Made by a program: the position numbers and the translations under genes. The notes beneath the pieces were generated by a model, which saw only the letters and a list, made by a program, of their open reading frames with translations, was not told the origin of the DNA and did no database searches. A stretch of 64,000 nt of DNA from an uncultured Lentisphaeria bacterium. Its GTDB lineage: Bacteria; Verrucomicrobiota; Lentisphaeria; Victivallales; UBA1829. Shown here piece by piece: positions 16,571 through 18,736 of the stretch. The DNA is taken from assembly GCA_949282305.1 (NCBI GenBank), contig CASDPB010000128.1, positions 51,885 through 115,884 on the forward strand. The letters are read 5' to 3'. Positions within the stretch are counted from its first letter, which is position 1, and every line of letters starts with the position of its first letter.

Positions 16571-18736
16571 GTGAGCATGGAACAGAACATTACACCACAG
16601 GGGGCTTCCGGGACTTCGCAGGATGCGGGGAACACGCAGGCACCGCGGCAGCAGAAAAAACCGGAGTTCCGCACCGGAGTGATCCGTTCGGACATCCAGT
16701 TCATTCCGCCCGGAGAACATGGCGACTATGCAATGATTTTCGATCCGTTGTCCGAGGCGTATTACAAACTTTCCGAGCGTTCCTGCCGGATTCTTCAGCT
16801 GATGGACCGCAGTTACGAGTTCGGCGAATTTCTGGAACGGGTCAACTCTTTCGGGATGGACTGCGACAGGGCGGAGCTTCTCGAACTGGTTAATTTCCTG
16901 CATGCGAACAATCTGGTCGCGCCGGAATACGGAACGCTGAACATGAAGGTCATGCGGCACCGTGAAATGAAGGAGAAAACCACGTTTCACCGGTTTATGG
17001 GAATGTATCTGTTTTTCCGGCTGCCCCCGATTCATCCGGACGGCTTTTTCACTGCGACGATGCCTTTCATCCGCATGTTGTTCAACAGATTCACCCTGTT
17101 TTTCATCATTGCGGCGGCGCTGGGCGGATACATCCTGCTGCTGCGTTCGTGGAACGAGGCGTATGCAACGTTCGTGAACTCTCTTTCCTGGGCGGGACTG
17201 GTGAAATATTTCTGGGCTCTGCTGATTACGAAATCTGTTCATGAGCTGGCGCACGGATATACTGCAAAAAGTTTCGGGGCGCGGGTGCGTTCCATGGGAA
17301 TCAGCTTCATCGTGTTTTACCCCCGGCTCTTTGTGGATTTGACCGATACCTGGAGGCTTTCCCGCGCAAAGCGCACCGCCTGCGACGGCGCTGGTATCGC
17401 CAGCGAGCTGATCTTCGGCGGGCTCGCCGCGATTGTATGGGTATATGCCCAGCCCGGACCTCTGAAGTCGACGATGTTCTATCTGTTCACGGTCAGTGCG
17501 CTTGGAACGCTGCTGGTCAACGGCAATCCCTTTATCCGTTACGACGGTTATTATCTGCTGTGCGACTTCATGAACATTGAGAATCTGATGCAGCGTTCCA
17601 GTGAATTCATCAAGGCGTGGAACCGCCGTTTTTTCCTCGGCATCGGTTCTTATCCCGACAGCGGCGACTGTTCCCCGCTGACTCTGTATGTCTTCGGCAC
17701 CAGCGCTTTTATTTACCGTCTTTTCCTGTATACGTCCATCATCCTGATTATTTATTTCAAGTTCACAAAGCCCGTTGCGATCATCCTGATGGCGATTGAA
17801 GTCTATACAATGCTGCTGATGCCGGTGATTTTTGAGCTGAAGGCGCTGAAGACTCTGCGCAGGAGGATGAACTGGGCGAAGGCACTGCTGACCGGGCTGG
17901 CGGTCTGCGGACTGGTTTCGCTTCTTTTCATTCCGCTTCCGTGGTCGTTTACCCTGCCTTGCGAGATTGTGCCTGAAACGAGGCGCATGGTGACGGTCAA
18001 TGAATCCGCGTTTGCGGCAAAGGAGTTGAAAGACGAGCCGTTTGCCGTGGAGAAGGGGGATCTGATTCTGCCGTTCCGCAACGTGTTTCTTGATTTCAAT
18101 ATCCGGCGCTATGAAATTTCCGCCGACCAGAACCGGGCGGAACTGAATCTTCTGCGCTCCGACACCAAGACGATCGGAGCGAGTCCCGCCGTATATGAGA
18201 AACTGCGCGCGAATCTGTTGACGCAGAATGAGATGAAGCGCCGCAGAGACAATATGGCGGTGAGGGCGGAGGCAGCGGGGATTTTTGTTCCGGAAATGGA
18301 AGGCATATCCGAAGGGCGCTGGCTGGAAAAGGGAACGGTGCTCGGCGAGATCGTGTCGAAAGAGGTTGCGGTTTACGCCTATGCTCTGGACCGCGAGGTG
18401 AACCGGATTCAGAAGGGGGATCGCGTGATGATCCGTCTGCGCGGAGAACTCAGGGAGTATCCGGGACGGATCGGTTCGCTGAATCCCGTGGCGGTCAAGT
18501 TCCGCGACTCGACTCTTGTGCAGGCGATGGGCGGCATCGTCCCCTGTTATCCGAATGAGAAAACTCGTGAATTCACGCCCGTGAACGTGCTTTACTGCAT
18601 TACCGTGATTCCGGATGAGCCGATCCTCTGCCGTTCGGGGCGTACCGGGCAGGCGGAAGTCAGGAAGACCTACCGCATGTCCGTGGAACTTGTCCGTTCG
18701 CTGATGCACATCTTCTACCGCGAATTCTCATTCTGA
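16571..18736 (+). CDS. PqqD-like / peptidase M50 (site-2 protease-like) / HlyD-like fusion membrane protein
   Basis: HELAH and NGNPFIRYDG zinc-protease motifs sit in a polytopic region. The N-terminal segment is PqqD-like (FDPLSEAYYKLSERSCRILQLMD...). The C-terminus is adaptor-like. An alternative ATG start is at 16577. Confidence 0.8.
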   Translation: MSMEQNITPQGASGTSQDAGNTQAPRQQKKPEFRTGVIRSDIQFIPPGEHGDYAMIFDPLSEAYYKLSERSCRILQLMDRSYEFGEFLERVNSFGMDCDRAELLELVNFLHANNLVAPEYGTLNMKVMRHREMKEKTTFHRFMGMYLFFRLPPIHPDGFFTATMPFIRMLFNRFTLFFIIAAALGGYILLLRSWNEAYATFVNSLSWAGLVKYFWALLITKSVHELAHGYTAKSFGARVRSMGISFIVFYPRLFVDLTDTWRLSRAKRTACDGAGIASELIFGGLAAIVWVYAQPGPLKSTMFYLFTVSALGTLLVNGNPFIRYDGYYLLCDFMNIENLMQRSSEFIKAWNRRFFLGIGSYPDSGDCSPLTLYVFGTSAFIYRLFLYTSIILIIYFKFTKPVAIILMAIEVYTMLLMPVIFELKALKTLRRRMNWAKALLTGLAVCGLVSLLFIPLPWSFTLPCEIVPETRRMVTVNESAFAAKELKDEPFAVEKGDLILPFRNVFLDFNIRRYEISADQNRAELNLLRSDTKTIGASPAVYEKLRANLLTQNEMKRRRDNMAVRAEAAGIFVPEMEGISEGRWLEKGTVLGEIVSKEVAVYAYALDREVNRIQKGDRVMIRLRGELREYPGRIGSLNPVAVKFRDSTLVQAMGGIVPCYPNEKTREFTPVNVLYCITVIPDEPILCRSGRTGQAEVRKTYRMSVELVRSLMHIFYREFSF

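Follow-up and report, generated by a model that had tools for sequence, protein, structure and literature searches.

An intramembrane site-2-type protease fused to an RRE-like domain and a periplasmic adaptor, and its gene linkage to TolC-like channels and giant repeat proteins

The closest described relatives of the gene considered here come from two separate lines of work. A computational study (Kamneva, Poudel & Ward 2015, PLoS One; PMC4452313) reported for Planctomycetes, Verrucomicrobia, Proteobacteria, Nitrospirae, and Chlorobi that "secondary SecA_DEAD" proteins are encoded beside three protein clusters, namely, Peptidase_M50 proteins with HlyD domains, GAF-HlyD proteins, and HlyD/biotin-lipoyl proteins, with OEP proteins present in some cases. 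The proposal made there, on computational grounds only, was a type-I-like secretion system in which the M50 protein would be the membrane pore and the SecA fragment the ATPase (PMC4452313). In the biosynthesis of daptides, the protein MpaP carries a RiPP recognition element (RRE; RiPPs are peptides made on the ribosome and modified after translation) fused N-terminally to an intramembrane site-2 protease, and leader removal has been assigned to it (PMC10036551). We analyzed a 64,000-nucleotide stretch of DNA from an uncultured Lentisphaeria bacterium (contig CASDPB010000128.1, positions 51,885 to 115,884; the whole stretch is called the window below) in which a single gene joins an RRE-like domain, an M50 site-2-type protease core, and a HlyD-like periplasmic adaptor. 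It follows two further adaptor genes, mfp1 and mfp2, and we refer to the three genes as the trio. On balance, we incline to the view that the fusion protein is the inner-membrane core of an envelope-spanning module, formed by the trio, that recognizes, cleaves, and exports giant repeat proteins.

The published module (PMC4452313) shares with the window trio an M50-HlyD protein, an adaptor with a GAF-type N-domain (the "GAF-HlyD" member, to which mfp2 corresponds), a short adaptor, and the lack of an ATP-binding cassette (ABC) transporter, and its reported occurrence in bacteria of the Planctomycetes-Verrucomicrobia-Chlamydiae (PVC) group and in Proteobacteria matches that of the family studied here. 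A Rhodobacteraceae plasmid (CP081100) shows that published layout, with an adaptor, the M50 gene, and then a SecA-like gene in an operon. The published module is, however, defined by its link to SecA_DEAD, whereas no SecA Walker-A motif occurs in the window or in 80 related Lentisphaeria loci, which were taken from species-representative genomes and serve as our comparison set; the large ORFs (open reading frames) of the window that were scanned are other proteins. Neither an RRE-like domain nor a substrate is named in the accessible text of PMC4452313. The main features of the trio, in window coordinates, are as follows.

14388..15176, + strand: mfp1, a periplasmic adaptor of 262 aa that starts with a signal peptide or anchor
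15166..16563, + strand: mfp2, a 465-aa adaptor
16571..18736, + strand: fusion gene (RRE-like domain, M50 core, and periplasmic adaptor), 721 aa
16673..16930, + strand: cytoplasmic RRE/PqqD-fold domain, residues ~35-120, from the AlphaFold2 domain model and Foldseek
17087..17929, + strand: seven-helix M50 (site-2 protease) core, residues 173-453, from profiles and topology
17240..17254, + strand: HELAH zinc-binding/catalytic motif, residues 224-228, in transmembrane helix 2 (TM2), invariant in alignments A1 and A4
17519..17548, + strand: NGNPFIRYDG, residues 317-326, at the cytoplasmic end of TM4, with the third zinc ligand Asp325
17933..18733, + strand: adaptor module, residues 455-721, from the HlyD_3 match and the Foldseek match to MacA

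Three modules in one chain

The fusion ORF begins at a GTG, with an ATG two codons on, and its frame is open over the full 721 aa. A first-pass annotation made from the letters alone had read the product as three modules in succession; profile searches, AlphaFold2 modeling, and Foldseek comparison found all three, and the strings it quoted are all present (DYAMIFDP...NNLV at residues 52-116, KSVHELAHGY at 221-230, and NGNPFIRYDGYY at 317-328). The full-length AlphaFold2 model has a mean pLDDT (predicted local distance difference test) of 84.8. Seven long TM helices are predicted, and the short loops of the TM core carry 12 Lys plus Arg residues inside versus 0 outside; the predicted topology would put the N-terminus in the cytoplasm and the C-terminus in the periplasm, that is, the RRE-like domain inside and the adaptor outside. 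The annotation had named an HExxH motif lying outside the membrane/cytoplasmic face as something that would count against its reading, and in the predicted topology this motif sits in the cytoplasmic half of TM2, with the Asp motif likewise toward the cytoplasmic face. The module matches, the topology, and the homologues brought up nothing of the kind it had listed against itself. A search of Protein Data Bank (PDB) sequences with the fusion protein alone returned nothing at E<=1, and a PDB search with the full-length profile returned adaptors only and no site-2 protease.

The N-terminal domain had been proposed to be a PqqD/RRE winged helix, and here the claim stands for the fold and falls short for the sequence profile. 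The domain-only AlphaFold2 model has a pLDDT of 91.8, and both AlphaFold2 models show three strands followed by three helices (E43-45, E54-58, E63-67, H69-76, H84-93, and H100-112). All of the top 14 Foldseek matches in the PDB are RREs, among them TbiB1 and TfuB1 (both leader-bound structures), PqqD, CteB, TigE, LynD, and SuiB, with TM-scores of 0.56-0.70 for the first 12 and 0.40-0.46 for two SuiB chains and E values from 3e-3 to 0.6. Residues R39, G51, D58, and L110 are invariant across phyla (alignment A4). A profile search of the PDB with this domain gave the lasso-peptide RRE of TfuB1 as its best match at a sub-threshold E of 0.18, and Pfam PqqD (PF05402) matched 2 of 21 members, again below threshold (best E 0.085). 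The fold evidence from predicted models is thus clear, while the sequence evidence by itself lies below threshold.

In the central core, the HELAH motif falls within a predicted helix at 207-234 and NGNPFIRYDG at the end of a helix at 297-317. Both metal motifs, HExxH and NxxPxxxxDG, are intact, as had been read from the letters: H224, E225, H228, N317, P320, D325, and G326 are invariant in 41 relatives, and the same seven residues are invariant in the cross-phylum alignment, which includes plasmid homologues from E. coli, Azospirillum, Burkholderia, and Variovorax at 22-26% identity. The fusion protein scores 24.8 bits against Pfam Peptidase_M50 (PF02163; cut-off 27.2), a domain precomputed for most of the 120 homologues listed. 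The curated families closest to it are two of NCBIfam, daptide_HExxH at E 6e-44 (residues 42-417 on model positions 7-367 of 379) and YydH/LiaK at E 8e-12 (residues 174-342).

The C-terminal ~270 residues proved to be HlyD-like, as proposed. Pfam HlyD_3 matches residues 579-643 above its cut-off (E 2.8e-6), the AlphaFold2 model contains an alpha-hairpin (505-530 and 535-560) together with lipoyl-like and beta-barrel parts, and Foldseek finds MacA (3fpp) first, at E 1.3e-12 and a target TM-score of 0.61-0.65, followed by MexA, ZneB, and EmrA.

A large family and its gene partners

The first-pass view that the fusion is rare or unusual could not be kept: the module had already been described in silico, and an exhaustive profile search over 1.84 billion cluster representatives returned 17,463 of them at E<=1e-3 and 4,685 at E<=1e-30. 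Among the best 150 matches, a few are shorter fragments, while most are ~700 aa long and align in a single stretch over nearly the whole profile. A word-indexed search yielded 374 relatives, mostly from Lentisphaeria/Victivallales and 690-730 aa in length. Among plasmids, tblastn found full-length homologues in Azospirillum, Tistrella, Cupriavidus metallidurans CH34, Burkholderia, Variovorax, Magnetospirillum, and Kosakonia and in 18 E. coli and 8 Citrobacter records; the E. coli version is present in 24 of 5,426 complete genomes, mostly plasmid-borne and at no less than 99% identity. Judged by its sequences, the family is large, old, and widely transferred. Its members carry adaptor-type annotations ("HlyD family efflux transporter periplasmic adaptor subunit" and "biotin/lipoyl-binding protein") or protease-type ones ("site-2 protease family protein," "M50 family metallopeptidase," and "putative peptide zinc metalloprotease YydH"), the last being the name that had been expected for relatives and is indeed used in some sources.

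The two upstream genes are constant companions. In the comparison set, mfp1 and mfp2 are both present in 71 of the 80 loci and the order mfp1-mfp2-fusion is kept in 68, so the co-occurrence that the first-pass annotation had suggested surveying is real. The product of mfp1 scores 144.8 bits against NCBIfam RND_mfp (cut-off 94.9) and also matches Pfam HlyD_3 and HlyD_D23. That of mfp2 consists of a cytoplasmic N-domain of ~195 aa, one TM helix (~205-225), and a HlyD-like periplasmic part, with a weak RND_mfp match over residues 242-446; HlyD_3 is found in 28 of 32 mfp2 homologues, one of which also has a clear GAF domain, and a domain scan detected no GAF in the mfp2 of the window. Packing is operon-like, mfp1 and mfp2 overlapping by 11 nt and a gap of 7 nt separating mfp2 from the fusion gene. 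Victivallis vadensis DSM 14823 carries three or more modules of this kind (L015, L022, and L037).

All ORFs of the 80 loci were clustered to find recurring neighbors, and two kinds turn up repeatedly besides the trio: a fusion of a TolC-like OEP protein with Sel1 repeats, and repeat proteins of very large size. The OEP-Sel1 gene lies near the module in 23 of 80 loci, mostly just upstream. The giant proteins are mostly 1,000 to >2,000 aa long, many being cut by the locus edge, and those of Lentisphaeria have Chlamydia-PMP repeats, beta-helix or YDG domains, and no Sec-type signal. Complete N-termini of the Lentisphaeria giants share the motif LEDRVLFEAAAAAEIV, i.e., F-(K/R)-L-E-D-R-V-L-F-E-A-A-A-A-A-E-I-V, and at most 15 residues from their C-termini lies an amphipathic motif, F-K-S-D-(L/F)-E-(K/L)-L-L-(D/E)-E. 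A hidden Markov model (HMM) of this C-terminal motif finds it in 29 of 80 loci, always upstream on the strand of the module, the next-best six-frame matches being noise (E above 2), and the stop codon of the giant gene often overlaps the mfp1 start. At least one marker is present in 27 of the 48 loci that have at least 4 kb of upstream sequence, and several more of these have unclassified giant ORFs. Overall, a co-operonic TolC-like gene and a large or giant repeat protein (~0.5-16 kaa, thousands of amino acids) accompany the trio in about half of the related Lentisphaeria loci.

The same partnership appears in Proteobacteria, where the OEP/TolC-like gene adjoins the trio in 6 of 7 gene-annotated plasmid loci, as does a large or giant repeat protein. 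The individual cassettes from outside the phylum are listed here, each consisting of a TolC-like (OEP) gene and the trio together with the protein named.

E. coli IncF plasmids: a 4,457-aa "Ig-like/cadherin-like" protein; cassette bounded by the insertion sequences IS5 and IS1
Kosakonia cowanii plasmid: a giant Ig-like protein (>2,300 aa)
Azospirillum: a 3,489-aa DUF4347 protein
Burkholderia anthina: a 3,302-aa DUF4347 protein
Variovorax paradoxus: a "tandem-95 repeat protein" gene of 48.7 kb, ~16,240 codons
Magnetospirillum pMSR-1: a 492-aa ELWxxDGT-repeat protein
JGI metagenome contig: OEP, trio, and then a DUF4347/beta-helix giant downstream

The usual order across phyla is large or giant protein, TolC, adaptor, adaptor, fusion. 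The proteobacterial N-termini begin MALEPRFMFDAAG in Azospirillum, LALEPRVVYDAS in Burkholderia, and ALESRQLFDGAA in E. coli. Of the five N-termini that were read, most show a LEPR-XLL-type motif; the 492-aa Magnetospirillum protein has none at its annotated start. Against the NCBIfam LEPR-XLL model (NF012209, cut-off 17 bits), the Azospirillum N-terminus scores 20.8 bits, and the Lentisphaeria motif scores 14.5 bits over the whole 24-position model. By eye only, the proteobacterial giants seem to end in an amphipathic helix of the F-S-x-Q-(V/L) type; HMM support for a C-terminal helix is confined to Lentisphaeria. No TM segment is predicted at either end of these putative clients. No ABC transporter gene is conserved near the module in the 80 loci or present in the E. 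coli cassette, and neither a tailoring enzyme nor a family of small peptides accompanies it in the 80 loci or in the plasmid loci. The family likely exports giant proteins rather than maturing small peptides or RiPPs.

Several less regular neighbors deserve mention in their own right. A small protein of 81-92 aa without a family match (cluster c5) adjoins mfp1 in six loci (L047, L054, L055, L068, L072 [94-369, - strand], and L075), one of them from Desulfobacterales, and in four of the six it separates mfp1 from the adjacent OEP-Sel1 gene. Inspection by eye suggested that it has the C-terminal motif of the clients; the HMM gave ~1 bit, and the idea was rejected. The Kosakonia, Azospirillum, and Burkholderia cassettes are flanked by one to three "tail fiber protein" genes of ~225 aa each (L082 11122-13229, L086 744-2608, and L088 3454-4068), of which the three from Kosakonia carry signal peptides; these may be a further co-travelling component or client. 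Short ORFs bearing client motifs occur at two loci, namely, a 63-codon stop-to-stop frame with the C-terminal motif (L066, ~6230-6417, + strand) and ORFs of ~200 and 159 codons with the C-terminal motif and a LEPR-like N-terminus (L022, 1549-2462, + strand), and they are either remnants of giant genes or naturally small clients. In one Lentisphaeria subclade (L048 [74-1201, + strand], L050, L053, and L059), a fourth HlyD-family gene precedes OEP, the operon order being adaptor, OEP, giant protein, mfp1, mfp2, fusion.

The window copy and its surroundings

The copy in the window stands apart from these partners. By tblastn, neither the OEP-Sel1 gene that is linked to the module in related loci (not every ORF was scanned for OEP domains) nor the giant proteins of those loci have a match in the 64 kb, and client motifs were found neither by regular expressions nor by the C-terminal-motif HMM on six-frame tails nor by the N-terminal-motif HMM. 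Relatives at 86-88% identity (L001, L003, and L008) have a giant-protein gene and an OEP-Sel1 gene immediately upstream, and the window lineage has therefore separated the module from these genes or lost them. The window trio is an orphan copy with every conserved feature, and its clients would have to be encoded elsewhere in the genome. It could plausibly serve in trans, since genomes of the group carry several paralogous modules, and the gut-type Lentisphaeria (Victivallales) genome from which the window comes probably does so as well.

The flanks of the window trio are an acyl-ACP (acyl carrier protein) thioesterase gene upstream and a lipid cluster downstream. This arrangement is common only to the near-identical genomes L002, L012, L093, and L094; at 87% identity (L001 and L003), the trio is flanked instead by genes for a giant PMP-repeat protein and a TolC-like protein. 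Further features of the surroundings are these.

14294-14310: terminator-like hairpin after the thioesterase gene
14330..14358, + strand: sigma-70-like promoter match 30 nt upstream of mfp1, a consensus match only
18803-27556, + strand: co-directional lipid-biosynthesis cluster

Promoter-type matches are no more frequent here than in shuffled sequence, and the one at 14330..14358 would lend weak support to a separate three-gene transcription unit. The lipid cluster encodes, in its first part, a 200-aa ORF without assignment, a B12-binding radical SAM protein, a GT2-DUF2062 glycosyltransferase, and an LpxL-like acyltransferase, and in its second part a ketoacyl synthase, a chain-length-factor-like half-KS, an ACP, a 414-aa ORF without assignment, and an AMP-ligase. 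The acyl-ACP thioesterase gene (13359-14129) may belong to it, in which case the trio lies inside the cluster in the window lineage only. The radical SAM protein, 0.7 kb from the fusion gene, is of the TIGR04072 lipid-biosynthesis type (469 bits). A link between it and the trio was considered and rejected, the lipid cluster adjoining the trio only in near-identical genomes. No credible precursor-like short ORF was found in the spacers at 14130-14387 and 18737-18802.

In metagenome contigs with a 96%-identical fusion (flanking DNA 88-90%), a 1.4-kb insertion lies between the thioesterase gene and mfp1 (L093 6329-7731). It encodes a 419-aa major facilitator superfamily (MFS) transporter, where the window has a unique spacer of 178 bp (14130-14307), and amounts to a presence/absence polymorphism at the promoter region of the trio. 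On the opposite strand, stop-free frames of 733 codons (16508-18709, - strand), 519 codons (15145-16704, - strand), and 302 codons (14400-15308, - strand) mirror the trio. They are rich in Arg and Pro and have no homology support; the longest was rejected as a real gene, all homology being on the + strand, and these frames look like shadows of codon bias. Elsewhere, the window encodes a conventional resistance-nodulation-division (RND) pair at 53101-58045 (- strand), an AcrB-family transporter (958 bits) with a 596-aa HlyD_D23 adaptor just upstream, and, at 37865-41811 (+ strand), a NuoF-like flavoprotein followed by an [FeFe]-hydrogenase large subunit with N-terminal ferredoxin domains. The latter genes fit an anaerobic, possibly electron-bifurcating hydrogenase.

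A possible export route and its place among known systems

The domain composition of the fusion, its topology as predicted, its conserved active site, and its conserved gene partnership form the observed basis for any account of what the trio does. From gene linkage and from knowledge of the families, we infer that the trio is the inner-membrane and periplasmic part of a TolC-dependent exporter for giant LEPR-XLL clients. The module would then resemble type I secretion, except that an intramembrane metalloprotease with a cytoplasmic peptide-recognition domain of its own takes the place of the ABC transporter. The RRE-fold domain would capture a short terminal signal of the client in the cytoplasm, the best candidate being the N-terminal LEPR-XLL-type segment F-K/R-L-E-D/P-R-x-L-F-E/D-A-A-A of the co-encoded giants, which gene linkage alone picks out as a candidate ligand. 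It may bind the LE(P/D)RxLF part, probably as an added beta-strand, as RREs bind leaders, and the Ala-rich stretch that follows would thereby be placed in the M50 site near the cytoplasmic face and cleaved, a function resembling that of the leader-cleaving peptidase domain of bacteriocin ABC exporters. Homology and gene linkage suggest that the three adaptor-type periplasmic parts could form a tunnel to the TolC-like channel, through which the client would be exported. Likely clients are giant adhesin-type repeat proteins (with Chlamydia-PMP repeats, YDG, DUF4347, or Ig-like domains). The cytoplasmic tail of HlyD engages type I substrates, and in a parallel way the cytoplasmic N-domain of mfp2 might read the C-terminal helix of the clients, either in addition or as the alternative. 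Energy could come from a borrowed host motor, from the proton-motive force, or from extracellular folding; because a variant with a SecA fragment exists, some lineages encoding in the operon a protein that consists of the SecA motor only, the housekeeping SecA is an obvious candidate motor.

The sketch given by the first-pass annotation, with recognition in the cytoplasm, cleavage in the membrane, and a periplasmic conduit, is reasonable in that the inside-to-outside layout holds; the events themselves we infer. In its most specific form, the proposal is of an ABC-independent route for giant LEPR-XLL/DUF4347 surface proteins, with a co-opted RRE fold and with the signal removed at the entrance of a channel that three different adaptor paralogues would make up together with a TolC-like protein. 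We hold this form of the proposal to be less likely than not.

Several points weigh against an exporter of giant proteins. Neither the window nor the 80 loci (no SecA Walker motif) nor the five-gene IS-bounded E. coli cassette was found to contain a gene for an ATPase or other energy coupling, which leaves the passage of a polypeptide of thousands of residues across the inner membrane unexplained. A nearby gene for a client or a channel is missing from at least a third of the loci whose flanks are long enough, among them the window, and the linkage in E. coli represents one mobile cassette rather than independent evidence. The score of the window protein is just short of the Pfam cut-off for M50 and does not reach the equivalog cut-offs of NCBIfam. 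It is a guess which terminus is read by the RRE-like domain, and likewise whether the client is cleaved by the M50 core at all. The literature yielded no experimentally characterized member, in keeping with what the first-pass annotation had stated; in its searchable part, which is incomplete, nothing links the family to LEPR-XLL/DUF4347 giants or names the N-domain an RRE, and one apparent "M50" match (PMC8277102) is residue M507 and no M50 peptidase.

Of the other explanations, the one that survives best, though we think it improbable, keeps the secretion role and makes the M50 core a clearing or gating device for stalled clients or spent signals, or has it release a C-terminal retention helix. 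RseP-type enzymes degrade remnant signal peptides, and the conserved amphipathic motif near the end of the clients would suit a retention helix. Nothing sets it apart from the main explanation, however, and neither client end is predicted to have a TM segment.

A small-peptide role was implied by the YydH-like substrate of the first-pass annotation: the RRE would bind a RiPP precursor, the M50 core would cut the leader, as in YydH or MpaP, and the adaptors would export the product. The RRE fold of the N-domain, the identity of the two closest curated families, and the radical SAM gene 0.7 kb downstream all speak for it. We nevertheless give it little credence. The scores lie far under the equivalog cut-offs, at 150.6 versus 300 bits for the daptide family (NF041824), half of the cut-off, and 45.3 versus 225 bits for YydH/LiaK (NF058609); the radical SAM protein is of the lipid type and sits in a fatty acid synthase (FAS)-like cluster that adjoins the trio only in near-identical relatives; the flanking spacers hold no plausible precursor; and what travels with the module across the 80 loci and the plasmid loci is giants and TolC, not precursor or tailoring genes.

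We hold it equally doubtful that the trio is an accessory of small-molecule or lipid efflux, tied to the lipid genes, with the M50-like core as scaffold or channel. Adaptors of this fold normally serve efflux pumps, the window trio does lie between the thioesterase gene and the FAS-like cluster, and relatives at ~90% DNA identity carry the MFS transporter gene directly upstream of mfp1. The lipid neighborhood is nonetheless restricted to the four near-identical genomes and gives way to a giant and a TolC-like gene in L001 and L003, and the fact that the zinc ligands and the RRE-like domain are strictly conserved from one phylum to another favors peptide recognition and proteolysis. A signaling protease of the RseP/SpoIVFB type, cleaving a membrane-anchored regulator with the periplasmic part as sensor, is very improbable: M50 motifs, a site-2-protease-like topology, and the GAF domain that mfp2 relatives can carry, typical of signaling proteins, would fit, but PDZ and CBS domains were not found, the neighborhood has no conserved gene for a sigma factor, an anti-sigma factor, or a membrane-tethered regulator, and the constant partners are adaptors and TolC.

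If the linkage to TolC-like genes and giant proteins reflects function, thousands of genes now annotated as HlyD adaptors or site-2 proteases would gain a role as parts of a machine without an ABC ATPase that exports and processes proteins among the largest in bacteria. The N-terminal LEPR-XLL motif would gain a purpose, and RRE domains would extend beyond RiPP biosynthesis. The idea is testable in a standard laboratory host because the E. coli IncF cassette is self-contained, with five genes bounded by IS elements. The interest lies in the family rather than in the window copy, which is of modest interest as a well-conserved orphan.

Among known systems, MpaP likewise joins an N-terminal RRE to a site-2-type core, homologous over residues 42-417, and lacks the periplasmic adaptor that the fusion protein possesses; daptide clusters also contain the tailoring genes MpaB, C, D, and M, along with short precursors whose last residue is Thr, whereas the window locus has no aminotransferase, decarboxylase, or methyltransferase gene and no such precursor. 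YydH/LiaK is more distant, its M50 core being related over residues 174-342 only, and it has neither an RRE-like domain nor an adaptor and works in the context of the radical SAM epimerase YydG and an ABC exporter. MacA, MexA, and EmrA share the fold of the last 270 residues (Foldseek E 1e-12 to 1e-8), but the adaptor of the fusion is covalently joined to its inner-membrane partner, and that partner is a protease. The operon logic is that of type I secretion (HlyB-HlyD-TolC; LapBCE), with a client, a TolC-like channel, membrane fusion proteins, and an inner-membrane component; the clients of LapBCE are giant repeat adhesins with terminal signals, as the likely clients here would be, and in peptidase-containing ABC exporters a leader-cleaving protease is likewise built into the inner-membrane component. 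In contrast to type I secretion, that component is here an M50 metalloprotease and not an ABC ATPase, there are three different adaptor-type proteins and not one, and the clients bear an N-terminal LEPR-XLL motif. The fusion family and the RRE-site-2 protease fusion were known before; what is new here is the pairing of the trio with a TolC-like gene and giant LEPR-XLL/DUF4347 proteins.

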